In this document: one piece after another, positions 5,035 to 51,425 of the stretch
Numbering within the stretch: the stretch's first letter is position 1
How the letters are laid out: each line of letters starts with the position of its first letter
DNA from: Coriobacteriia bacterium
GTDB lineage: Bacteria > Actinomycetota > Coriobacteriia > Anaerosomatales > SLCP01
Reading direction: 5' to 3'
Assembly: GCA_030603745.1 (NCBI GenBank)
Contig: JAUVXE010000003.1
Span: 131,923 to 195,922, forward strand
DNA: 64,000 nt
Position numbers and translations under genes: made by a program
Notes under the pieces: model-generated
What the model was told of the DNA's origin: nothing
The model's database searches: none
Seen by the model: the letters and a program-made list of their open reading frames with translations, nothing else

Positions 5035-6003
<969 letters not shown>

Positions 6004-6106
6004 CGGGTCCTCCTCCACCGGGTGGTCGCAGGGTCGCGCGACGGGGCGCGTGGCCTGATGCTCGGAACATACCACGCGGAGGCGGAGAATAAACGCACAT
6101 ACACCG

Positions 6107-6121
6107 TGTGCAAACTGCACA
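6107..6121. promoter_or_regulatory. perfect palindrome TGTGCA-aac-TGCACA in the AT-richer cysK upstream region (candidate Rrf2 operator)
   Basis: Read directly from the sequence. It overlaps a second inverted repeat (GCACA-n7-TGTGC) and lies about 105-120 nt upstream of the cysK start. Confidence 0.3.
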
Positions 6122-6306
6122 TATCGAACCGGCGCACCTCGGCTGCCGCCTGCGCGAACGGGTCGGCCGCCGTTCGCCGCCTCCGGCGCGAGAGGTGTCC
6201 CCGCACGGTCGCGATATGGGCGATACTGCTCGGTGAAGTCGTCGGAGAGGTGACGGGCGCGGCCGGGGCCGCACCGTGACCGGGGGTCACCGGGAGGGGC
6301 GCTGCC

Positions 6307-7413
6307 GTGAGGCCGCATCGCATCGAGCCGCTGTGGGACCGGGTCGACCGCAACCGCGTCGAGCTCGCGGTGTTCATCGCGCTCTTCTTGCTCGCCTCGT
6401 CGGCGGGGGCCGCGATCGTGCTCGCCTTCGGTCTCGCGGGCCTCGCGATCCTGACCCAGGACCCGGAAGCCTGGGAGTGGCTGCTCGGCAACGTGGGCCG
6501 CGCGTTCGGCGTAGTGAGCGGAGCCGCGGCGTGTGTGGCGGGCGCGTACGTGGCGGTCGCGCTCAGCAGGTGTGAGCGGTGGCTGCTCAGGCGCTTCGGC
6601 GCCGAGCTCTCGCCGCGTGGGGAGGAGCTGCCCACAAAGCACGCGCTCAAGGACATGGCGATCGCAGCCGGCTTCGAGGTCGCCCCGGCCCTCTACGTGA
6701 TCGAGACGCGCAACGTCAACGCCTTCGTGTTCGGGAAGGGGCGCAGGCGCCCGGTGGTGGGCGTCACGCGCGGCCTCGTCGACCGCCTCACCCCCGACGA
6801 GCAGCGGGCGGTCTTCGCGAACCTCATGGCGCGGCTGCGCGCCGGCGACACCATCTGGGCGACCGGGGTGACCGCGATCATGGCGCCGCTGTGGACGGTC
6901 CGCGACCGGCAGCTCGACGCCGACGCGCCGGTCCGCCGCGGCGCGAGCGACGCCCGCGCGCAGGTCGACCCGCGCACCGGCCGGCCGTATGTCGTGACGA
7001 GCGAGGCGGACCTGCTCGCGGGGATCTACTGGCTCATGCCGATGCTCTTCGCGTTCATCTTCGTGAGCGAGTTCGTCGCGTTCGGGCACCGCTGGTCGCA
7101 GCTGCGCCACGCCGAGGTCGCCGACGCCGAGGGGATGCTCCTGCTCAAGGACCCGCGCTCGATGCTCTCGGCTCTCGAGAAGTGCGTGCGCTTCAACAAC
7201 TACGTGCCCACGGCCGGTCCCGGCTTCACCCAGCTGTTCTACTGCTGGACGGGTGACGGCTCGACCGACGACGAGTCCGACCCGGAGAACCGGCGCATCA
7301 CGCGCCTGCGCGAGGTGCTCGGGGTCGCGGGGATGCCCGATCCGGTCGTCGTGCCCAACGAGCCGGTGTTGGCCCCCGTGGCGCCCCGGCTCGAAGGCGC
7401 GGGCGGCTCCTGA
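6307..7413 (+). CDS. M48 (HtpX-like) peptidase homolog with a degenerate active site; membrane protein
   Basis: VNAFVFGKGRRRPVVGVTRGLVDRLTPDEQRAVFANLMARLRAGD aligns with the HtpX block ...INAFATG...STGLL..[21 protein letters not shown], but HExxH is replaced by NLMAR. It has N-terminal TM helices. Confidence 0.6.
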   Translation: MRPHRIEPLWDRVDRNRVELAVFIALFLLASSAGAAIVLAFGLAGLAILTQDPEAWEWLLGNVGRAFGVVSGAAACVAGAYVAVALSRCERWLLRRFGAELSPRGEELPTKHALKDMAIAAGFEVAPALYVIETRNVNAFVFGKGRRRPVVGVTRGLVDRLTPDEQRAVFANLMARLRAGDTIWATGVTAIMAPLWTVRDRQLDADAPVRRGASDARAQVDPRTGRPYVVTSEADLLAGIYWLMPMLFAFIFVSEFVAFGHRWSQLRHAEVADAEGMLLLKDPRSMLSALEKCVRFNNYVPTAGPGFTQLFYCWTGDGSTDDESDPENRRITRLREVLGVAGMPDPVVVPNEPVLAPVAPRLEGAGGS

Positions 7414-36289: not shown

Positions 36290-37672
36290 ATGAAGGAGTT
36301 CGCGGCGTTCTGGGGCTGTACGATCCCGGCGCGATTCCCGTTCATCGAGAAGGCCACGAGGCTCGTCTTCGACGACCTCGGCGCCCGTGTGCACGAGCTC
36401 GAAGGCCACACGTGCTGCCCCGAGGGCGTGCTCGTGAAGGCGAACGACGAGCATGCCTTCTACACGGCCGCCGCCCGCAACCTCGCCATCACGGAGCGTG
36501 CCGAGCTCGACGTGGTCACGCCGTGCAACGGCTGCTACTCGACGTTCAAGGAGGCCCAGAGCCACCTGCGCACCGAGTGGCGGGAGCGCGAGGAGATCAA
36601 CGAGCGTCTCGACCGCGAGGAGCTGCACTACCACGGCTCGAACAAGGTCACCCACTTCGCCGAGTGGCTCGTGGACGAGATGGGCACCGGGCTCGTGGCG
36701 TCCAAGGTCGTCCGGCCGCTGTGGGGCATGCGCATCGCGGTCCACTACGGCTGTCACCTGTTGCGTCCCCAGCCCGCGGTGCGCTGGGACGACCCGCTCC
36801 ACCCCCGCAAGGTCGAGGAGCTCATCGCCGCCCTCGGCGCGCGGGTGGTCGACTACCCCACCAAGATGCAGTGTTGCGGCGGGGCGCTCGACCGGGTGGG
36901 GGAGCGCGAGTCATCGCTCGCCTTCGCTCGCACCAAGCTGCTCGACCTCACCCGCGAACAGGTCGACGCGCTCGTGGTGGTCTGCCCGAGTTGCTTCCAG
37001 CAGTTCGACCTCAACCAGGCCGCCCTCCAGCGCGCCAAGGAGGACGTCCACGTCCCGGTGCTCTACCTCGCCGAGCTGCTCGCGCTGACCTACGGGCACG
37101 AGCCCGAGGAGTTCGGCCTCGACATGCACCGGGTGTCCGTCGCGCCCTTCCTCGACCGCTGGGGCTCTCGCACCGCCGACAAGGCCCGCCTCGCGAGCCA
37201 CTTCGACGTCGCGATGCTCGGGAAGTGCTACTCCTGCCAAGCGTGCAAGGACGACTGCCCGGTCTGCAAGGTCGATCCGGCGTTCCAGCCCACCGAGATC
37301 ATCGGCGACCTCGTGCGCGGCTACCTCGACGACGTCATCGAGGAAACGCAGCTGTGGAAGTGCCTCGAGTGCTACACCTGCCAGGAGCTCTGCCACTCCG
37401 ACATCGGCATGGCCGAGACGTTCCGGCAGCTGAAAGAGCTCGCGATGGCCGCGGGTAGCGGACCGGAGTCCGTCTCGGCGGCGTACAAGACGTTCCTCGA
37501 GACCGGCACCCTCGGCAAGCCCAAGGAGTCCGCGCGCAAGAAGCTCGGCCTCGCGCCGCTGCCGACCTCGGGAGGCAACGCCATCTCGTGCCTGATGTGC
37601 GACGACGACGCCTCCTCCGCCTCCGCCGAGGCGACCGCCACCGATCCGTCCCCCGACACCGAGGGAGAGTAG
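36290..37672 (+). CDS. fused HdrB-like (two CCG domains) and HdrC-like (2x[4Fe-4S]) iron-sulfur oxidoreductase
   Basis: The ATG at 36290 follows GAAGGAGG. The HdrB-type CCG/Cys motifs are HTCCPEG...PCNGCY and MQCCGGA...VCPSCF. The C-terminal part has CYSCQACKDDCP and CLECYTCQELC ferredoxin motifs. Confidence 0.8.
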   Translation: MKEFAAFWGCTIPARFPFIEKATRLVFDDLGARVHELEGHTCCPEGVLVKANDEHAFYTAAARNLAITERAELDVVTPCNGCYSTFKEAQSHLRTEWREREEINERLDREELHYHGSNKVTHFAEWLVDEMGTGLVASKVVRPLWGMRIAVHYGCHLLRPQPAVRWDDPLHPRKVEELIAALGARVVDYPTKMQCCGGALDRVGERESSLAFARTKLLDLTREQVDALVVVCPSCFQQFDLNQAALQRAKEDVHVPVLYLAELLALTYGHEPEEFGLDMHRVSVAPFLDRWGSRTADKARLASHFDVAMLGKCYSCQACKDDCPVCKVDPAFQPTEIIGDLVRGYLDDVIEETQLWKCLECYTCQELCHSDIGMAETFRQLKELAMAAGSGPESVSAAYKTFLETGTLGKPKESARKKLGLAPLPTSGGNAISCLMCDDDASSASAEATATDPSPDTEGE

Positions 37673-37674
37673 CC

Positions 37675-38958
37675 ATGCCGCGCTTTGAACCGCTCCTCGA
37701 GCGCATGCCCACCACCCGCACGCCCGAGTTCGTCGACCGCACCGCGCCCGGCGGCGCCGCCGGCGAGCGCCCGTCCTACACCGCCGAGGCGCCCTTCAAG
37801 ATCCACGGCGGCTGCGGCCTCATGGGCATCTGCGACGAGTCCGGCTCGCTGATGAGCGGCGAGAACGCCATCCGCGCGATGGCCGTGCAGCGCGATCGCG
37901 GCAACGGGCTCGGCGGGGGGTTCGCCGGCTACGGCATCTACCCCGAGTTCCCGGACCACTTCTGCTTCCACATGATGTTGCACGACGTGCGCGCCAAGGA
38001 GGAGGCCGAGGCGGTCTTCGACCGGCACTTCACCGTGGACCTCGCCGAGCCGATGCCCACGCGTCCCGTGAAGGGCATCTCCGACGCCCCGCTGCTGTGG
38101 CGCTACTTCCTCAAGCCCGACCCGCACCGCCTCGAGGAGACGGAGATGAGCGAGGAGGACTTCGTCGTCCACGTGGTCATGCTCATCAACTCCACCGTCG
38201 ACGGCGCGTTCGTCGCGAGCAGCGGCCGCAACATGGGCGCCTTCAAGGGCGTGGGCTTCCCCGAGGAGATCGGCCACTACTACCTGCTCGAGGAGTACGA
38301 GGGCCACACGTGGGTGGGCCATAACCGCTTCCCGACCAACACGCCCGGCTGGTGGGGCGGGGCGCACCCGTTCACGCTGCTTGACTGGTCGATCGTGCAT
38401 AACGGCGAGATCTCGAGCTACGGCATCAACAGCCGCTACCTCGAGGCGTTCGGCTACAAGTGTACGCTCGGCACCGACACCGAGGTCGCGGCCTACCTCT
38501 TCGACCTCATGCTCCGGCGCCACAAGCTGCCCATCGAGCTCGCGTGCAAGGCGCTCGCGAGCCCGCTGTGGTCCGACATCGACCGGATGCCGGAGGAGGA
38601 GCGCGCCCTCATGCGCTCGCTCCGCGCGGTCTACGGCCCGGGCATGCTCAACGGCCCGTTCGCGATCGTGCTCGGCCACAACGGCGGCATGGTCGCGCTC
38701 AACGACCGCATCAAGCTGCGCCCGCTCGTGGCCGCGCGCCAGGGCACCATCGTGATGGTCGCCTCCGAGGAGAGCGCGATGCGCGAGGTCCTCGACGCCC
38801 CCGACCGCGTCTGGGCGCCGCGCGCCGGCGAGCCCGTGATCGCGAGCGTGGCCGGCGCCGAGCAGCCGTTCCACGACGACCTGCACCTGTCCGCCGACGA
38901 GGTCTCGTGCGCCGTCACCGGCGTCGTCGAGACCTGCGAGACCGTCGAGGTGAACTAG
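37675..38958 (+). CDS. glutamate synthase large-subunit domain 1 homolog (class II / Ntn glutamine amidotransferase), stand-alone
   Basis: GGCGLMGICDESG...AVQRDRGNGLGGG...HNRFPTNTPG...HNGEISSYG. It starts 2 nt after the hdrBC stop. Confidence 0.8.
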   Translation: MPRFEPLLERMPTTRTPEFVDRTAPGGAAGERPSYTAEAPFKIHGGCGLMGICDESGSLMSGENAIRAMAVQRDRGNGLGGGFAGYGIYPEFPDHFCFHMMLHDVRAKEEAEAVFDRHFTVDLAEPMPTRPVKGISDAPLLWRYFLKPDPHRLEETEMSEEDFVVHVVMLINSTVDGAFVASSGRNMGAFKGVGFPEEIGHYYLLEEYEGHTWVGHNRFPTNTPGWWGGAHPFTLLDWSIVHNGEISSYGINSRYLEAFGYKCTLGTDTEVAAYLFDLMLRRHKLPIELACKALASPLWSDIDRMPEEERALMRSLRAVYGPGMLNGPFAIVLGHNGGMVALNDRIKLRPLVAARQGTIVMVASEESAMREVLDAPDRVWAPRAGEPVIASVAGAEQPFHDDLHLSADEVSCAVTGVVETCETVEVN

Positions 38959-38959
38959 C

Positions 38960-40471
38960 ATGCCGATCTCACTCATCCAGCCGGAGTTCAAGGTCCACAT
39001 CGACTACGACAAATGCCACAAGTGCGGCCGCTGCGTGCAGCAGTGCGGCTGGGGCGTGTACAACTTCAACGAGCGCCCCATCCCCGATGACGCCAAGTGC
39101 CGCGCCTGTCACCGCTGCGTGACCTACTGCCCCGCGCACTGCATCACCATCAAGAAGAACGACCTCGCGCTCCGCGACAACGCCAACTGGTCGGCCGGGC
39201 TCCGCACCGCGGTCTGGCGCCAGGCCGAGACCGGCGGCGTCATGCTGACCGGGATGGGCAACGATAAGCCCTACCAGTCGATCTTCGACCACCTCGTGCT
39301 CGACGCCTGCCAGGTCACCAACCCCTCCATCGACCCGCTCCGTGAGCCGATGGAGCTGCGCACCTACCTCGGCAGGAAGCCCGACGCGGTGAGCGTCGAG
39401 TCCGACGGCGACGGTGGCTTCAGGCTCGCCGAGGGCTCGGGCGTGGAGAAGAACGTCAAGCTCGACACGCCGATCATCTTCTCGCCGATGAGCTACGGCT
39501 CGGTCTCGCTCAACGTCCACCGCTCGCTCGCGATGGCCGCCGAGCGCCTCGGCATCCTCATGAACACCGGCGAGGGCGGGCTGCACGCGGACCTCTACCC
39601 CTACGCCGACAACGTGATCGTGCAGGTGGCCTCGGGGCGCTTCGGCGTGAACCCGGAGTACCTGAACCGCGGCGCCGCGGTCGAGATCAAGGTGGGGCAG
39701 GGGGCCAAGCCGGGTATCGGCGGACACCTGCCGGGCGAGAAGATCAACAAGGAGGTCTCCGAGACCCGGATGATCCCGCAGGGCTCCGATGCGATCAGCC
39801 CGGCGCCGCACCACGACATCTACTCGATCGAGGACCTGCGCCAGCTCATCTACTCGATCAAGGAGGCGACCGGCTACAAGCCGGTGGGCGTCAAGATCGC
39901 CGCGGTGCACAACGTCGCCGCCATCGCGAGCGGCATCGTGCGCGCGGGTGCGGACTACGTCTACCTCGACGGCTTCAAGGGCGGCACGGGCGCGGCGCCG
40001 CAGATCATCCGCGACCACATCGGCATCCCGGTCGAGATCGCGATCGCGGTCGTCGACCAGCGGCTGCGCGACGAGGGCATCCGCAACCAGGCCTCGATCG
40101 TGGCGGCCGGCTCGATTCGCTCCTCGGCGGACCTCGCCAAGGCGATCGCGCTCGGCGCCGACGTGGTGGCGATCGGCTCGGCGGCGCTCATGGCGCTCGG
40201 GTGCCACATGTGCCAGGGCTGCCACACCGGTTCGTGCTCGTGGGGACTCACCACGCAGAAGCCCGAGCTCACGCGCCGCGTGGACCCCGAGTGGGGCGCC
40301 GAGCGGCTCACGAACCTCGTGCACGCGTGGAGCCACGAGCTGCAGGAGATCCTCGGCGCGCTCGGCGTGAACGCGGTCGAGTCGCTGCGCGGGAGCAGGG
40401 AGCGGCTGCGCTCCATCGGCCTGGACCAGCAGACATGCGACATCCTGGGCGTCAAGCCCGCGGGACTGTAG
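38960..40471 (+). CDS. glutamate synthase FMN-binding central domain with an N-terminal 2x[4Fe-4S] ferredoxin domain (archaeal-type GltS)
   Basis: CHKCGRCVQQC / CRACHRCVTYCP, then FSPMSYGSVS...VASGRFGV...IKVGQGAKPGIGGHLPG...SPAPHHDIYSIEDL...LDGFKGGTGAAP. Confidence 0.9.
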   Translation: MPISLIQPEFKVHIDYDKCHKCGRCVQQCGWGVYNFNERPIPDDAKCRACHRCVTYCPAHCITIKKNDLALRDNANWSAGLRTAVWRQAETGGVMLTGMGNDKPYQSIFDHLVLDACQVTNPSIDPLREPMELRTYLGRKPDAVSVESDGDGGFRLAEGSGVEKNVKLDTPIIFSPMSYGSVSLNVHRSLAMAAERLGILMNTGEGGLHADLYPYADNVIVQVASGRFGVNPEYLNRGAAVEIKVGQGAKPGIGGHLPGEKINKEVSETRMIPQGSDAISPAPHHDIYSIEDLRQLIYSIKEATGYKPVGVKIAAVHNVAAIASGIVRAGADYVYLDGFKGGTGAAPQIIRDHIGIPVEIAIAVVDQRLRDEGIRNQASIVAAGSIRSSADLAKAIALGADVVAIGSAALMALGCHMCQGCHTGSCSWGLTTQKPELTRRVDPEWGAERLTNLVHAWSHELQEILGALGVNAVESLRGSRERLRSIGLDQQTCDILGVKPAGL

Positions 40472-40486
40472 AGGGAGGCGTTGCAG

Positions 40487-41308
40487 ATGGCAGCGGTCAA
40501 GGAAGCCGGCACGCCCATCGAGGGCTACATACAGGTCGACCCCGAGGTCACCCGCGACGGCGACGTCGTCACGATCGACTGCCGGGGCATCTACTACAAG
40601 CACGTCAACGAGGCCGTGCGCTCCGCGTTCGCCGAGGGAGCGACCACCGTGCGCCTCACGAACGTCAACGGCCAGCGCTACATCGGCACCGGGATCTCGG
40701 GCAAGGGGCTGCGCATCGAGGTCGAGGGCACCGCGGGGCAGGACCTCGCGATGTTCATGGACGGCCCCACGGTCGAGATCTTCGGCAACGCGCAGGACGG
40801 CGTGGGCAACACCATGAACGCCGGCACCGTGGTCGTGCACGGCGACGCCGGGGACGTGCTCGGCTACGGCATGCGCGGCGGGACCGTGCTCGTGCGCGGT
40901 GACGTGGGCTACCGCGTGGGGATCCACATGAAGGCCTACGAGGGCCACGTGCCGGTCATGGTGTGCGGCGGCAAGGCGCGCGACTTCTTCGGCGAGTACA
41001 TGGCGGGCGGGATGCTCGTGTTGCTCGGCATGGACACGCGGATCGAGGGCCCGCTCGTGGGCGGATACGTTGGGACCGGCATGCACGGCGGCGTCATCTA
41101 CCTGCGCGGCGAGGTCGAGCCGTGGCAGTGCGGCAAGGAGGTCGGCATCTTCCCGGCTGACGAGGCCGACATGAAGCAGCTCAGGCCCGCGCTCGAGCGC
41201 TACTGCGAGGCGTTCGGGGTCGAGCTCGCCGAGGTGCTCTCGGTGCCGTTCACCAAGCTCGTGCCGATCAGCCATCGTCCGTACGGGAAGCTGTATACGT
41301 ACGTGTAG
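40487..41308 (+). CDS. glutamate synthase GXGXG (C-terminal beta-helix) domain protein
   Basis: The repeats GTAGQDLAMFMDG..VEIFGNAQDGVGNTMNAGTVVVHGDAGDVLGYGMRGGTVLVRGDVGYRVG are present. The ATG at 40487 lies 8 nt after GAGGGAGG; the track start (TTG at 40481) is the alternative. Confidence 0.85.
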   Translation: MAAVKEAGTPIEGYIQVDPEVTRDGDVVTIDCRGIYYKHVNEAVRSAFAEGATTVRLTNVNGQRYIGTGISGKGLRIEVEGTAGQDLAMFMDGPTVEIFGNAQDGVGNTMNAGTVVVHGDAGDVLGYGMRGGTVLVRGDVGYRVGIHMKAYEGHVPVMVCGGKARDFFGEYMAGGMLVLLGMDTRIEGPLVGGYVGTGMHGGVIYLRGEVEPWQCGKEVGIFPADEADMKQLRPALERYCEAFGVELAEVLSVPFTKLVPISHRPYGKLYTYV

Positions 41309-41362
41309 GCACGCCGAGGGGGCCTGCCGTGAAGGTCTCCTTGCTCAGACAGTCCTCACTTC

Positions 41363-41389
41363 GAAGGGCCGCCCGGTGGGCGGCCCTTC
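41363..41389 (+). terminator. GC-rich hairpin GAAGGGCCGCCC-ggt-GGGCGGCCCTTC downstream of the glt operon
   Basis: A perfect 12-bp stem 55 nt after the stop, followed by TCTCG with no long T tract. Identical arms recur at 58998-59027. Confidence 0.5.
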
Positions 41390-41572
41390 TCGCTGCGGAA
41401 CTCGCCGGAGACCTCCCCGCCAGGCCCGGGGCGCGCGAGTGCGTGTGTGGCGCGCGCGGGGGCGGCGGGCGGTGCGTGCTGGCGGCTTACGCAGACTGTG
41501 TATGGTGCCGTATGTGGCATACTCACGCTGGGGATTCGGGGTTAGACCCACGTCAGACACAGGGGGGGTTCT

Positions 41573-41908
41573 ATGGCAGTCCAGATCGTACCGCTCATCA
41601 AAGCACTCGGACCCATCGTCGCCGCAATCGCTGACTCGGCGATTCCTGCCTTCACCGCACACAAGTCCCAGGCGGCCAAGGAGGATCCCGTGCTTGCGCG
41701 GCAGATCAAGGAGCTGCAGGACGCCTCCACGGCAAACGCTGAAGAGATGAAGGCGCTGGCCGAGCACCTTCAGGTCTTCATCGCCACCGCAGATGAGGCG
41801 GCGGCGGTCGTGGAACGCAAGATAGCCACGTACAGGATGCTGCTCTTTGTCAGTTTGGGGGTGGCTGGAATCTCTCTGGTGCTTGCGATCGTCGCACTGG
41901 CGGGATGA
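41573..41908 (+). CDS. hypothetical 111-aa protein: hydrophobic N-terminus, central coiled coil, C-terminal TM helix
   Basis: The ATG follows a G-rich SD (CAGGGGGGG). The C-terminal LLFVSLGVAGISLVLAIVALAG is a TM segment. GC is lower than in neighbouring genes. I recognise no family. Confidence 0.5.
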   Translation: MAVQIVPLIKALGPIVAAIADSAIPAFTAHKSQAAKEDPVLARQIKELQDASTANAEEMKALAEHLQVFIATADEAAAVVERKIATYRMLLFVSLGVAGISLVLAIVALAG

Positions 41909-42127
41909 CGTGTTGCACGCATAGTTGGGGCGCATGGAGGTGCTGACGTCGCCCCAAGCTCGCTCGGGGTCTAACCAGCGCATCGAGCAGAACGCCACAA
42001 GCTAGAATCGACCTGAGAGCGCATGCGCGTCTGCTCATGCGCCAACACGTTAGACCTGGCATCTCGGACCCAGGGCCGAGTGACTGGTATCTTATGAGTT
42101 GCGCCATTGATTCGCTGCTGACGACCG

Positions 42128-42832
42128 ATGGGGAGCACACGTATGGCGAAGTTCCTGAACACTAGCGCCACCAACTACTATCTTGAGGAACTCATCAAGG
42201 GTACGAGACAGCACCTGATAATCATCAGCCCGTTCCTCAAGTTCAACGACCGCATCAAGGAGCTCCTCGCGGATCTCGACCGCATGAAGATTGACATCCG
42301 CATCGTCTATGGCAAGAGCGAGCTGGCCCCTCAGGAGATCAACTGGCTGCGTTCTCTTGAGTTCGTGCGGACGAGCTTCTGTCAGCACTTGCATGCGAAG
42401 TGCTACATCAATGAACAGTCCGCAATCATAACGTCGATGAATCTCTACGACTTCAGCCAGGTCAACAACAACGAGATGGGCGTCTACATCGAGCGCGATG
42501 CGGAGCCGGAACTGTACGGTGACGCATACGAGGAGGCTCAGCGTCTGATTCGCGTGAGCGAACCGGTGCGATTGGCGGCCGACAAGGTTGAGGATACTCC
42601 GAAGGACATCGGGGATCCCAAGGAGTACGAGAAGATCACCACGTCGAACCTCGCGAAATCCCTTGGAATCAGTACCAGTGAGTTGACTGAGCATCTGATT
42701 GCGAAGGGACTGCTCGTTCGCGACGGGAAGCAGTTCAAGCTGACCGATGCCGGAAAGCAGGTCGGTGGGGAGTTCAAGTTCTCGAAGAGGTTCGGCCCCT
42801 ATTTCATCTGGCCCAGAGGCATGCAGGTCTAG
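42128..42832 (+). CDS. single-HKD phospholipase D-family (Nuc/BfiI-like) nuclease with a C-terminal HTH-like domain
   Basis: The HKD motif is LHAKCYINEQSAIITSMNLYDFS, preceded by LIIISPFL and IDIRIVYG (PLD fold). The C-terminal part has LAKSLGISTSELTEHLIAKGLLVRDGK. Codon usage is visibly richer in A/T than the host. The likelier start is ATG 42143, after GGGGAG. Confidence 0.75.
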   Translation: MGSTRMAKFLNTSATNYYLEELIKGTRQHLIIISPFLKFNDRIKELLADLDRMKIDIRIVYGKSELAPQEINWLRSLEFVRTSFCQHLHAKCYINEQSAIITSMNLYDFSQVNNNEMGVYIERDAEPELYGDAYEEAQRLIRVSEPVRLAADKVEDTPKDIGDPKEYEKITTSNLAKSLGISTSELTEHLIAKGLLVRDGKQFKLTDAGKQVGGEFKFSKRFGPYFIWPRGMQV

Positions 42833-42879
42833 CCTCGCACCCTCATCCGCACACTCGCCACCCGAGACGGAAACACCAA

Positions 42880-43374
42880 ATGACCTCGCCCAACCTCAGC
42901 GCACTCGACTCCGCCGTCCGGCACCTGCTCGGGCAGCCGTCGTTCGCCGCGACGCTCGCCGACCTCGAGCGCGAGCTCGCGAACTCGACGGCGACCTTCG
43001 TCTGGGCGACGGTCGACCTTGACTCGATCCCGGCCGAGCTTCCCGGCGAGATCGAGTCCGGCTGGATCTTCCACCTGCGGCGCGACGTGCCCTCGGGCGC
43101 CCACTACCACCCCAACAGCATCCAGCACATGACGCTCGTGGCCGGCGGGGGCGAGGCCGTCCTCGGCGGGGAGCGCTCTGCGATGGTGCCGTTCGACGCA
43201 CCCGCGCCGGTGGAGGAGCGCTGGATCGTCATCGGGGAGGGCGTCCCTCACGAGTTCGTCCCCACGGGCGGCGACATGACGGTCGTCTCGTTCCACACCT
43301 GTGGCGCCGAGGAGCTCGAGGAGGTCGAGTGCGACTCCGGTCACCTGCGGCACTACGAGGGGCCGGAGGCCTGA
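42880..43374 (+). CDS. cupin domain protein, function unknown
   Basis: SGAHYHPNSIQHMTLVAGGGE...GVPHEF resembles the two cupin motifs. Confidence 0.6.
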   Translation: MTSPNLSALDSAVRHLLGQPSFAATLADLERELANSTATFVWATVDLDSIPAELPGEIESGWIFHLRRDVPSGAHYHPNSIQHMTLVAGGGEAVLGGERSAMVPFDAPAPVEERWIVIGEGVPHEFVPTGGDMTVVSFHTCGAEELEEVECDSGHLRHYEGPEA

Positions 43375-43416
43375 CCCCGCGCGGAATCCCCGACGCTCTC
43401 GGCTCCAGCGCGCGAC

Positions 43417-43953
43417 TCACCCGCGAAGCAGCTCCAGGAGCTTGCGGGTGGTGTTGCAGTTCCGGATGGTGACCCGGGCGTAGAGCGGGGTGCCCACGAT
43501 CCGCTGCAGCCGGCTCCGGGTGGCGTCCTTGCGGTCCACCCGCCAGATCACGGCGCCGGGCACGTAGCGGGCGTCCTCGATCCCGGGCCGAGGCCCCAGC
43601 TCGTCGAGCACCTCCGCCCGGTCCACGTCGGGCTGCAGGAACACCACGTCGCACTTCGCCGAGTCGTCGTTCTTCCACGCCGAGGGCAGGGCATCGACGA
43701 TCGCCGCCATCTCCTCGGCGGTGCGAAGCTGGATCTCGGTCCGCACGCCGGTCGCCTCGAGCACCGCGTCCACGAGCATCGCCGCCAGGCCGGCGCGATC
43801 CTCGGCATCCGTGGTGAAGAGCACGTTGCCCGTGTTGATGTAGGTCGTGACCTCGGCCATCCCGGCGCGCTCGAAAGCCTGCCGCAGCTCGGCCATGGTG
43901 ACCTTGTTCGCGCCGCCGACGTTGACGCCGCGCAGCAGTGCCAGGTATCTCAT
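43417..43953 (-). CDS. DUF1697 domain protein
   Basis: MRYLALLRGVNVGGANKVTMAELR...YINTGNVLF is the family N-terminal signature. Confidence 0.85.
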   Translation of the reverse strand: MRYLALLRGVNVGGANKVTMAELRQAFERAGMAEVTTYINTGNVLFTTDAEDRAGLAAMLVDAVLEATGVRTEIQLRTAEEMAAIVDALPSAWKNDDSAKCDVVFLQPDVDRAEVLDELGPRPGIEDARYVPGAVIWRVDRKDATRSRLQRIVGTPLYARVTIRNCNTTRKLLELLRG

Positions 43954-43991
43954 AGGGGTAGCCTACCCGCTCCGCCTCACCGGGAGACGCC

Positions 43992-44357
43992 ATGACGGAC
44001 CACCGCCTGTTCTCGATGCCGTTCGCGAAGGTCTACCCGCTCTACGTCCAGAAGGCCGAGCGCAAAGGGCGCACCTCGGACGAGGTCGACCACCTCATCT
44101 TCTGGCTCACCGGATACGACCGGTCAGGCCTCGAGCGCCACCTCGCCGAGGAGTCCGACCTGCGGACGTTCTTCGAGCAGGCGCCGGCGTTCAACCCGGA
44201 CAGCTCGCTCATCACCGGCGTGGTGTGCGGCGTTCGCGTCGAGGAGGTCGAGGACCCGCTGATGCGCAAGATCCGCTACCTCGACAAGCTGGTTGACGAG
44301 CTCGCGCGGGGGAAAGCACTGGAGAGGATCGTGCGTAAGGCCCCGGAGGGCTCGTAG
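43992..44357 (+). CDS. DUF2200 domain protein
   Basis: [32 protein letters not shown] is the family signature. Confidence 0.85.
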
Positions 44358-44400
44358 GCCCGGACCCGCGGGGCGTCCGCCGCTTCACCGGGAGGTCCAC

Positions 44401-44973
44401 ATGCGCCAGCTCATCTACTCCGCACTGCTCTCCGTCGATGGCCTCATCGACGCCGCCGACGGCGACTCCGCCTGGGCCACGCCCGATCCGGAGCTCCACC
44501 GCCACTTCAACGAGCTTGACCGCACCATGGGCGCCCACCTCTACGGGCGACGCATGTACGAGTTGATGGCCGCGTACTGGCCCACCGCCGACGAGCAGCC
44601 GGGGGCGCCGGACTACGAGGCGGAGTACGCTCGCATCTGGAAGGCGCTGCCCAAGGTCGTCTTCTCCAAGACGCTCGACCGCGTCGAGTGGAACGCGCGT
44701 CTCGTCGCAAGCGATGCCGCCGAGGAGGTCGCGCGGCTCAAGCAGCTGCCCGGCGGGCCGCTCGGGGTGGGGGGCGCCGAGCTCGCGACGTCGCTCGCGC
44801 GTGCCGGCCTCATCGACGAGTACCGCTTCTACGTGATGCCGGTAATCGTGGGGTCGGGGCGGCCGATGTTCGGTCCCCTCGGCGAGCATATCGACCTCGA
44901 GCCACTGGAGGTGCGGCGGTTCGGGTCCGGCGCCGTGCTCCTGCGATACCGCGCGTCGGCGGCGGGCGGGTAG
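44401..44973 (+). CDS. dihydrofolate reductase family protein (RibD C-terminal domain-like)
   Basis: MRQLIYSALLSVDG...YGRRMYELMAAYWP...LGVGGAELATSL...GLIDEYRFYVMPVIVGSG. Confidence 0.8.
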   Translation: MRQLIYSALLSVDGLIDAADGDSAWATPDPELHRHFNELDRTMGAHLYGRRMYELMAAYWPTADEQPGAPDYEAEYARIWKALPKVVFSKTLDRVEWNARLVASDAAEEVARLKQLPGGPLGVGGAELATSLARAGLIDEYRFYVMPVIVGSGRPMFGPLGEHIDLEPLEVRRFGSGAVLLRYRASAAGG

Positions 44974-50627: not shown

Positions 50628-51253
50628 CCCTCGGCCATCCATGCGCGCAGCCACTGCTCCATCGACGCGTCGACCATGTGGATGAGGCGGCGCTTGGCCT
50701 CCTCGGCGGGGATCGCCTCGCCGATGGGGCCGAACATCCGTCCGCCGATGATGAGCGACACGAGCCCGTGGTTCGTCGCCCACGAGAGGCTCACGATCTC
50801 CTGGACCGACTCCGAGGGGCGCAGCACGCCCTCGTCCATGAGCTGCTGCACCGCCTCGAGGTAGCGGAGGTAGGAGCGGCGCCGCGCGCCGGAGCGGTCG
50901 GGGGAGTAGCCATGGGGGCGCTCGAACATCAGGCGGTAGAGGTTGGGGTGCTCGATTCCCCACACCACGTACGCGCGCGCACGCGCACGTAGGACCTCGA
51001 CGCCCGAAAGGCCGGCGACCGCCTGCTCCTGTGACTCGCCGAACCAGTCGAACGCGCGGTCGACCGCGGCCTCGAGCAGCTGGCCCTTGTCCTTGTAGTA
51101 GAGGTAGATCGTCGTCGCGCTGATGCCGAGCTTCTCGGCCACGTCGCGGAGCTTCAGGGCCTCGAAGCCCTGCTCGTCGATGAGGTCCGTGGTCACGCGG
51201 AGGATGTCCACCGCCAGTGCCGGGTTCGCCGGACGTGCTGCCATGTTGATCAC
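50597..51253 (-). CDS. TetR family transcriptional regulator
   Basis: ILRVTTDLIDEQGFEALKLRDVAEKLGISATTIYLYYKDK is the TetR HTH. Confidence 0.85.
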   Translation of the reverse strand: MINMAARPANPALAVDILRVTTDLIDEQGFEALKLRDVAEKLGISATTIYLYYKDKGQLLEAAVDRAFDWFGESQEQAVAGLSGVEVLRARARAYVVWGIEHPNLYRLMFERPHGYSPDRSGARRRSYLRYLEAVQQLMDEGVLRPSESVQEIVSLSWATNHGLVSLIIGGRMFGPIGEAIPAEEAKRRLIHMVDASMEQWLRAWMAEGQESTDAIEK

Positions 51254-51332
51254 CTGTCCCTTGTACGCCTACGTCCGTAACTTAACCGAGTTCTGTAATG
51301 AGCGTCAAGCCGAAAATACTTTGAAAAAGGCG

Positions 51333-51371
51333 TTGACAGCCGAGAATGACGGGAGTAAGTTAACGCCCGTC
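51333..51371 (+). promoter_or_regulatory. sigma-70-like promoter TTGACA-17-TAAGTT with an embedded inverted repeat GACGGG-n12-CCCGTC (candidate TetR operator)
   Basis: The -35 box is at 51333-51338 and the -10 box at 51356-51361. The inverted-repeat arms at 51348-51353 and 51366-51371 bracket the -10. Related GTTAAGTTA(C/A) motifs occur at about 51281 and 51381. Confidence 0.5.
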
Positions 51372-51425
51372 AGATAACACCGTTAAGTTAAAGACGCGCA
51401 CAGCGTCCAGGGAGGAGAGGGAACC

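Follow-up and report, generated by a model that had tools for sequence, protein, structure and literature searches.

We analysed a 64,000-bp stretch of Coriobacteriia DNA (contig JAUVXE010000003.1; the window), in which a lower-GC islet carries two same-strand genes, one for a small 111-aa protein and one for a phospholipase D (PLD)-type protein with a winged helix-turn-helix (wHTH)-like tail. The results showed that 41967–42057 is an integron attC site, and the islet is probably a fragment of an integron cassette array lying outside any integron: a single attC site lacking an integron-integrase (SALIN), or a miniature cluster of attC sites lacking an integron-integrase (CALIN) with one intact attC. 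It would comprise two independent cassettes, the second of which would encode a probable restriction-like defence nuclease. The original prediction, made from the sequence alone, had described a two-gene defence or toxin module with its own operators. The features on which the argument depends are the following.

41541..41548, + strand: left cassette boundary, the R'-type core (GTTRRRY) GTTAGACC, with the crossover between 41541 and 41542 (between G and TT) and high-GC host DNA to the left (start of DNA homology; 8-mer enrichment)
41573..41908, + strand: gene of cassette 1, 111 aa, with an N-terminal hydrophobic segment, a conserved central helical region and a C-terminal transmembrane helix (homologs; hydropathy)
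41967..42057, + strand: attC of cassette 1, with R'' GTCTAAC at 41969–41975, L''/L' stems with bulged bases, a variable loop and R' GTTAGAC at 42049–42055 (covariance model; fold; homology)
42050..42834, + strand: putative cassette 2, from the TT of the shared core, with an 87-nt leader and the PLD gene, its own attC missing (5' boundary formed by R' of the attC)
42143..42832, + strand: PLD-wHTH gene, 229 aa when counted from M6 of the originally predicted open reading frame (ORF) (PLDc_2; phrog_9329; homologs; models)
42826..42834, + strand: GGTCTAGCC, overlapping the PLD stop codon, a possible R'' remnant of a lost attC that matches 8 of 9 bases of the R'' region of cassette 1, GGTCTAACC (suggested by a one-mismatch pattern search)

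The repeated motif is the core of an integron attC site

The 64 kb contain three copies of the 8-mer GTTAGACC, at 41541 (+), 41968 (−) and 42049 (+), all inside the islet; 0.41 copies were expected, and three copies were reached in 0 of 100 shuffles. When the 9-mer was searched with one mismatch allowed, there was no window-wide enrichment (7 observed, 6.0 expected), so the signal lies in the clustering of exact motif copies. The original prediction had placed three motif copies correctly, the third of which (CGTTAGACC) matches at 8 of 9 bases only. It had taken them for autoregulatory operators, whereas the repeated GGTTAGACC/GGTCTAACC is the R'/R'' core of integron recombination sites.

R'' (RYYYAAC; GTCTAAC) and R' (GTTRRRY; GTTAGAC) are perfectly complementary. 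Folding of the site as single-stranded DNA predicted an 8-bp R-box stem, an unpaired spacer, an L-box stem with bulges on the R''–L'' arm and a variable loop (predicted fold z = −3.3 for the top strand and −3.9 for the bottom strand). Blastn against loci with homologs of the small ORF (collected loci carry L numbers) showed that 41971–42056 is 87% identical to a site in L093, which has weaker copies of it too. L093 (3.3 kb) is a plain cassette array of six attC sites 505–746 bp apart, and the small-ORF cassette stands directly after the first of them.

A covariance model, R1, was built from an alignment of seven attC sites of metagenomic cassette arrays, the consensus structure of which has 20 pairs, 5 of the 20 with compensatory changes. 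On the window attC, R1 scored 91.9 bits (E = 1.9e-23) on the + strand versus 20.6 bits on the − strand. No other significant match was found in the 64 kb, and there was none in a filter-free search of 40800–44500. Models R1 and R2 replaced hand-written attC scans; a strict consensus scan had missed real sites with an imperfect R'', and a loose one had given many false positives in 70% GC DNA.

Scanning metagenomes with an 18-base stretch of the attC family gave at least 120 matching stretches, from which 80 loci were analysed. These 80 loci contained 223 attC sites by the model, in dense single-orientation arrays with a median GC of 63%, and classic IntI C-terminal motifs were present in two of them, L167 and L173. 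In L167 an attC at 1891–1980 is preceded, at a distance of ~560 bp, by the IntI-type C-terminus (~1200–1330) on the same strand, and the integrase thus appears co-oriented with the cassettes, not divergent; in L173 the same motif stands at ~198, near the 5' end.

The motif was not found upstream of any of 80 other PLD genes (400 bp upstream searched). The supposed operators are thus the cores of recombination sites, and no integrase accompanies the integron-derived DNA of the islet.

Cassette boundaries and class of the element

Homology to the small-ORF cassettes of L093, L094, L086, L087 and L089 starts at 41541–41547 (blastn), at GTTAGACC with the break after its G, and in L093 the same junction (GTTAGACCCACGCC...) closes a complete attC as its R' end. 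Cassette 1 occupies 41542–42049, with a 31-bp leader, an ATG at 41573, a stop codon ending at 41908 and the attC in the same orientation. The original prediction had stated that no direct repeat flanks the islet genes, and had seen no mechanism of mobility. The first gene is bracketed by the 8-bp direct repeat GTTAGACC at 41541 and 42049, and the mobility signature is that of integron site-specific recombination.

The islet is not a complete integron, in which intI, attI and the cassette promoter (Pc) stand next to the cassettes: a motif search of the window found no recombinase, and the left flank is a glutamate-synthase-like operon. A CALIN has at least two attC sites and the islet a single one, which makes it a SALIN by the IntegronFinder definition, though it holds two cassette-like units. 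With the SALINs and CALINs of IntegronFinder 2 (PMC9024848) it shares a canonical attC sequence and fold, a same-orientation ORF upstream, the absence of an integrase nearby and a small size; it differs from them in having two cassette-like units with one intact attC. Small CALINs and SALINs have been proposed to come from the insertion of cassettes into genomes, where isolated cassettes are common; the genomic attG sites into which integron integrases place cassettes are loosely defined (GWT for IntI1) (10.1101/2022.09.11.507474). Unlike the product of such an attC × attG insertion, the islet does not have the expected right-hand attC. Elements of this kind (SALIN/CALIN) are already known, and this further one is unusual in its host: among Actinobacteria in RefSeq, no complete integrons and only "a few CALIN" were reported (PMC9024848).

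A history of three steps probably produced this arrangement. Integrase-driven cassette shuffling in a donor would have put two independent genes side by side; the fragment would then have entered the chromosome, most likely through the trans action of an integron integrase on a non-canonical genomic site; and the right end would have eroded afterwards, with loss of the second attC. The GGTCTAGCC sequence over the PLD stop codon may be what is left of that attC; no attC structure was found after it.

Several results weigh against the reading of the islet as two cassettes from one array: (i) no attC was found 3' of the PLD gene, even in the filter-free search; (ii) no IntI or tyrosine-recombinase box I or box II motif was detected in the six frames of the 64-kb window, to which this regular-expression search was confined (the expression detects IntI in L167 and L173); (iii) no empty-site relative was found with which to place the right boundary and the insertion event, the homologs of the downstream cupin-like gene being at most 73% identical and not syntenic; (iv) approximately 76 of 80 PLD loci have no detectable attC near them; and (v) the view of the PLD unit as a cassette is drawn from its 5' boundary and from one clear homologous cassette.

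The homologous cassette is in L053, where a complete PLD cassette was found (attC 5864–5943, PLD gene 6001–6708, attC 6718–6796), followed by the next cassette and its attC. In L019 (an Actinomycetota metagenome-assembled genome, MAG) and L025, attC matches lie in the same locus, 1.7–5 kb from the PLD gene, and L046 has one weak match (E = 0.3) ~250 bp downstream of it. With L053 as the sole clear case, we rejected the view that the PLD family as a rule travels in cassettes.

The possibility exists that only the small-ORF unit is a cassette and that the PLD gene came separately, in an island or as a prophage remnant, with the cassette inserted upstream of it later, or in the reverse order. This would fit with the PLD gene having no attC of its own, with the difference in GC between the two units, and with a family whose members mostly lie outside cassettes and are carried by inoviruses and islands. 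However, the PLD segment opens with the same 8-bp core GTTAGACC as cassette 1, and since an attG needs only GWT (10.1101/2022.09.11.507474), a chance match of 7 bases is unlikely. The possible R'' remnant over the PLD stop codon and the complete PLD cassette of L053 also speak against a separate arrival, and searches for tRNA genes and recombinase motifs revealed no other mobility signature flanking the PLD gene. We therefore regard a separate origin of the PLD gene as quite improbable, and favour the fragment of two cassettes.

The two genes are independent cargo

Both ORFs of the original prediction are present, at 41573–41908 (111 aa) and 42128–42832 (234 aa), and dN/dS values showed that both are under purifying selection. 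For the small ORF, dN/dS was 0.07–0.16; its ten homologs are 63–84% identical, all ~111 aa long, with a mean column identity of 78%. The protein has an N-terminal hydrophobic segment (residues 1–24), conserved central helices with a moderate heptad pattern, and a C-terminal hydrophobic helix (residues 89–111; Kyte–Doolittle 2.67). It had been described as having a C-terminal transmembrane helix and belonging to no recognisable family, which agrees with the finding that it had no match in Pfam, NCBIfam, PADLOC or PHROGs.

Neighbourhoods of the two genes gave no evidence that they travel together. No small-ORF homolog was found near any of 79 PLD loci (tblastn; many phyla; genome-collection scan), and no PLD gene beside small-ORF homologs in the contexts of four of the ten homologs, ~11 contigs in all. 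The gene downstream of the small ORF varied, being a 195-aa polytopic membrane protein, a 268-aa protein, an SDR protein or another cassette. The small ORF and the PLD gene are thus functionally independent cargo.

The originally proposed model, a membrane protein and a PLD nuclease forming a two-gene defence or toxin module with operators, had in its favour that the genes are adjacent, on the same strand and within a common compositional anomaly, that the motif clusters around both genes, and that the HTH-like tail of the PLD protein could in principle bind such a motif. Against it stand the lack of co-occurrence at either set of loci, the absence of the motif upstream of the 80 other PLD genes, and the overall GC of the two ORFs, which differs (0.61 for the small ORF, 0.55 for the PLD gene). 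Moreover, the element whose ends the motifs form is homologous to attC sites in arrays with neither gene. It is thus very unlikely that the pair forms such a module, and a speculative two-gene system with operators is replaced by a checkable anatomy, that of cassettes stranded in a chromosome without an integrase.

In the most distant hosts of the small ORF, L084 (a Halopseudomonas MAG) and L092 (a 47% GC contig), no attC hairpin was found after it. In L084 (317–5904) the small-ORF homolog ends a same-strand run of defence-like genes (HNH, GmrSD_N, TIR, NADAR and DUF6389) with no recognisable attC.

Composition of the islet

The computed profile agreed with the predicted lower-GC islet: the lowest 700-bp GC of the 64-kb window falls in the islet (windows 42001–42850, z = −4.7), and GC is 0.52–0.57 over 42000–42900 versus 0.66–0.75 in the flanks. 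The claim that the PLD gene is full of A/T-ending codons was correct in direction but overstated. The GC of third codon positions is 0.79 in the PLD gene and 0.74 in the small ORF, as compared with 0.90–0.97 in eleven neighbouring genes; the shift is real but modest, and G or C still ends most codons. In large part, the GC dip arises from codon positions 1 and 2 of a conserved PLD protein rich in K, N, I, Y and E. The horizontal acquisition of the islet, as had been proposed, is supported. There is no tRNA gene within 15 kb of it, in agreement with the original prediction, which had also found no integrase, and scans of the islet for Rfam families, sigma-70 promoters and terminators gave no match.

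Structure and conservation of the PLD-wHTH protein

Translation of the PLD gene most likely starts at 42143 (M6), because all homologs begin MAKFLNTS and the database copy has 229 aa. In this numbering, residues 1–145 form a Nuc-like single-HKD domain that is nearly invariant, 146–162 a variable acidic linker, and ~163–229 a winged-HTH-like module with an extra beta-hairpin. As predicted, there is exactly one HKD motif (HAKCYINEQSAIITSMNL), and the domain matched Pfam PLDc_2 with E = 3e-8. The catalytic motif reads H84-A-K86-x4-E91-x5-T97-S98-M-N100, with the key residues invariant in 30 sequences; compared with HxK(x)4D(x)6G(S/T)xN, it has E for D, and T for G at position 97, and is a recognisable version of that motif.

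The protein matched the phage protein family phrog_9329 over its full length (E = 6.8e-98; residues 6–233 of the 234-aa ORF to profile positions 1–234 of 236). The family comprises 6,243 homologs with 59–78% identity across phyla. Besides the window's own 100% copy, the best 120 homologs are 68–78% identical and 225–268 aa long (one has 317 aa). Species-representative genomes carry the gene, at 58–75% identity, in Hydrogenedentota, Planctomycetota, Verrucomicrobiota, Actinomycetota, Cyanobacteria, Chloroflexota, Desulfobacterota and many Proteobacteria. The dN/dS of the PLD core was at most 0.13, with dS saturated. Between distant loci, no conserved non-coding DNA was found to travel with the gene, either upstream or downstream.

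The full-length AlphaFold model had a moderate pLDDT of 75.7, with low values in the loop of residues 99–110. A Foldseek search with it matched the N-terminal domain of SauUSI (8e-6), Nuc (1byr; 1.6e-5, TM-target 0.71) and Zucchini (5e-5). The original prediction had expected a Nuc/BfiI fold followed by a wHTH; the N-terminal part is a Nuc-type single-HKD PLD fold and the tail is wHTH-like, but the wHTH matches were weak.

The C-terminal module recurs in DNA-targeting effectors

Modelled alone, the C-terminal module reached a pLDDT of 90.5, with a strand, two helices, a hairpin wing, a short helix and a hairpin, so that the HTH-like tail noted earlier has a confident fold in the model. Its fold matches in the Protein Data Bank (PDB) were all winged-HTH DNA-binding proteins (MarR, LysR, Sso10a and Z-alpha types), the best with E = 0.11. 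DpnI was neither among the PDB sequence-profile matches nor among the top fold matches of the module.

When the module (~65 aa) was searched alone against 1.8 billion representatives, it was found in 366 clusters. It occurred as a stand-alone protein, in one to three copies after a PLD domain, at the C-terminus of NERD and DUF2726 nucleases, in four copies before a DarT single-stranded DNA (ssDNA) ADP-ribosyltransferase domain, and as two tandem copies at the N-terminus of the PADLOC candidate PDC-S69. These fusions provide the strongest evidence for the module as the DNA-recognition part of DNA-targeting effectors. With PDC-S69 the protein shares the ~65-aa module (E = 9e-14 to positions 4–68 of the 289-position model), whereas PDC-S69 has two N-terminal copies, another C-terminal part and no PLD domain; identity with PDC-S69 was rejected, the small module alone being common to both. 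No functional data were found in the literature on PDC-S69 or on the PLD gene of Vibrio inoviruses.

The copy number of the module also varies: there are two copies in P0002 and in L034 (L034:6001–6921), three in a 380-aa PLD protein and four before DarT, and a 3,263-aa protein has 11 stretches matching it (module examples: P0002, L034, P0258, P0286 and P0253).

Function of the PLD-wHTH protein

Single-HKD proteins such as Nuc and BfiI must dimerise to form one active site, and proteins of this type cleave phosphodiester bonds without metal, via a phospho-histidine intermediate. By analogy, the PLD-wHTH protein would be, as a homodimer, a metal-independent DNA endonuclease, the substrate of which would be chosen by the winged-HTH-like module. 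Taking domains and relatives together, it is most likely a stand-alone, methylase-independent restriction-like (type IV-like) endonuclease.

Several characterised enzymes have a comparable layout. A single-gene defence nuclease with a PLD domain and a C-terminal sensor, END(PaCF1), has been validated experimentally, and winged-HTH is listed among the C-terminal domains of related PLD domains (PMC12191111). Like END(PaCF1), SauUSI and BfiI (PMC12191111), the present protein joins an N-terminal single-HKD PLD domain to a C-terminal domain for DNA recognition, is encoded by one gene and has no methyltransferase; its tail is a small wHTH-like module, whereas theirs is an inactivated EndoIII, a helicase or a pseudobarrel. 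Its catalytic domain (~145 aa) is nearer in size to Nuc or Zucchini. Nuc of the Salmonella plasmid pKM101 (1byr) has the same single-HKD PLD fold of ~150 residues, and dimerisation is expected here by analogy with it; the identity is 15%, and Nuc is without a DNA-binding tail. Nuc is secreted to the periplasm.

Aba4572I and CbaI (PMC11037411) share the label of PLD plus winged helix and are stand-alone; those enzymes are toxic or hard to express. That group has 27 reported members, is proposed to be N6-methyladenine (6mA)-dependent type IV, and was defined by a winged helix homologous to that of DpnI (PMC11037411). Compared by published description only, the present family has more than 6,000 members versus 27, and neither the profile nor the fold search with it recovered DpnI. 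Integron cassettes are also known as phage-defence genes, the bacteriophage resistance integron cassettes (BRiCs; 10.1101/2024.07.02.601719). As with BRiCs, a small candidate defence gene is found here as a cassette and has homologs outside integrons without attC, but a text search of 10.1101/2024.07.02.601719 found no PLD-type BRiC.

Identity with the following named systems was rejected. The BfiI-type layout suggested in the original prediction stood as far as a PLD and a DNA-binding domain go; the tail is wHTH-like and not a B3-like pseudobarrel, and with this different C-terminal fold and no methyltransferase ORF in the islet, a BfiI-type type IIS enzyme was dismissed. DrmC of DISARM was excluded by a score of 29 bits against the cut-off of 133 for NCBIfam DrmC_I and by the absence of the partners DrmA, DrmB and DrmE from the islet, and MkoB of Mokosh because the PADLOC MkoB (and DrmC) matches cover the PLD core only and no MkoA is in the islet.

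A defence or toxin role, as originally suggested, is plausible, since relatives of the gene often lie in defence-type contexts, and we lean towards a role in defence or against mobile genetic elements, judging from domain content and neighbours. The opposite possibility is that the protein is not immune but serves its carrier elements, by DNA processing or "repair", exclusion of competitors or as an addictive toxin, or that it acts on a non-DNA phosphodiester substrate. The inovirus copies are annotated in GenBank as "DNA repair protein", the carriers (filamentous prophages and cassettes) are themselves mobile elements, and the PLD superfamily includes lipid enzymes. The extreme cross-phylum conservation with saturated dS suggests a conserved target and not an arms-race sensor, in which such conservation would be unusual; for this reason a role in the service of mobile elements was kept open. 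On the other hand, the module is fused to NERD, DUF2726, DarT and a PADLOC defence candidate, the closest structural relatives are nucleases and not lipid synthases, defence-type neighbours recur, and validated single-gene defence enzymes with a PLD domain and a sensor exist (PMC12191111). A non-immune role thus appears unlikely, and the restriction-like nuclease is the preferred interpretation.

Three points count against the functional part of this interpretation as well. The fold matches of the module to winged-HTH proteins were weak, the survey of neighbours described below consists of raw counts with no matched background, and nuclease activity and a defence role are what we infer by analogy, not from experiment.

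Carriers and neighbours of the PLD family

Seven GenBank Vibrio inoviruses carry the PLD gene in their variable region, the functions of which were not discernible to the authors who described it (PMC10790759). Six Vibrionaceae genome loci with the PLD gene are inovirus prophages, and other copies lie among toxin-antitoxin genes.

The nearest flanking ORFs of the PLD loci (110 in total) were surveyed. Recurrent neighbours were Mrr_cat (5), NA-iREase1 (5), a topoisomerase-type zinc ribbon (4), PbeA (4), mad2 (4), NERD (3), ResIII or type I restriction endonuclease (3), OLD/GajA-type ATPases (3) and NsnB (3), and the rest were unrelated housekeeping genes. These results show a tendency towards defence islands with no fixed partner.

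In L003, L043, L051, L055, L058, L059, L062 and L064, a membrane-anchored Mrr-type endonuclease with a C-terminal topoisomerase-type zinc ribbon adjoins the PLD gene; altogether, this neighbour lies directly upstream or downstream of it in ~8–12 loci from several phyla. Six loci from Chromatiaceae and Desulfuromonadales (L005, L009, L010, L011, L023 and L029) have, within ~3 kb of the PLD gene, a 973–1295-aa protein with a second PLD domain, a ResIII/DEAD helicase and a long C-terminal region, which is possibly a distinct defence system. In L029 the large protein is fused to an N-terminal S-adenosylmethionine (SAM)-methyltransferase domain, and elsewhere a separate methyltransferase ORF adjoins. 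The wider blastp cluster of this PLD-helicase protein covers 13 loci, partial matches included.

Reach of the findings

The PLD-wHTH family is already catalogued and functionally uncharacterised, and it fits a known modular class. A wider proposal would be that it is a very abundant, ultra-conserved single-protein immune nuclease, that its module is an unrecognised DNA-sensing domain for a generic feature of invader DNA (single-stranded or modified), and that cassettes flow into Actinobacteria; taken as a whole, we consider this doubtful. If it were true, a nuclease with more than 6,000 members of 59–78% identity in at least ten phyla would be spread by cassettes, filamentous prophages and islands, its module would be common to NERD, DUF2726, DarT and PDC-S69 effectors, and the window would document integrase-mediated entry of cassettes into the Actinobacteria, in which integron elements are regarded as nearly absent.

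Within the narrower interpretation, the islet would be a further case of cassette traffic into a high-GC actinobacterial genome, where such elements are reported to be extremely rare. A large conserved PLD-nuclease family and a reusable DNA-recognition module would also be cheap targets for phage-defence and type IV restriction screens.

Flanking genes and other features of the window

The host DNA has ~70% GC, and the region 41309–41540 directly left of the islet has 0.72. The left flank (37588–41308; third-position GC ~0.96) is a split archaeal-type glutamate-synthase-like operon with separate amidotransferase, flavin mononucleotide (FMN)-domain and GXGXG-domain ORFs, and its end is marked by the following feature.

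41363..41391, + strand: GC-rich hairpin 3' of the glutamate-synthase-like operon, in the host DNA of the left flank (read from the sequence)

A candidate second attC at 51280–51388, obtained in a crude scan, was rejected, as its palindromes belong to a divergent TetR/ABC-transporter promoter. These 109 bp are bounded by ACTTAAC...GTTAAGT, contain internal palindromes and look like a TetR operator region; they are flanked by a TetR-like gene (start near 51243, minus strand) and a divergent ABC-transporter permease-like gene (start 51427).

The run of small genes at 42880–44357 could be older, ameliorated accessory cargo; no attC was found there in the filter-free search. A DUF1697 gene, two genes downstream of the islet (43417–43953, − strand), belongs to the same family as an integron cassette in the L093 array (L093:2722–3210). 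Just 47 bp separate the PLD stop codon from the GC-rich cupin-like gene, the closest homologs of which (56–73% identity) are in Actinobacteria and Coriobacteriia MAGs. Taken with the GC of ~70%, these matches of a single flanking gene point to a probably actinobacterial host. That gene is patchily distributed across phyla, with 50–57% identity in Cyanobacteria, Planctomycetota and Acidobacteria.

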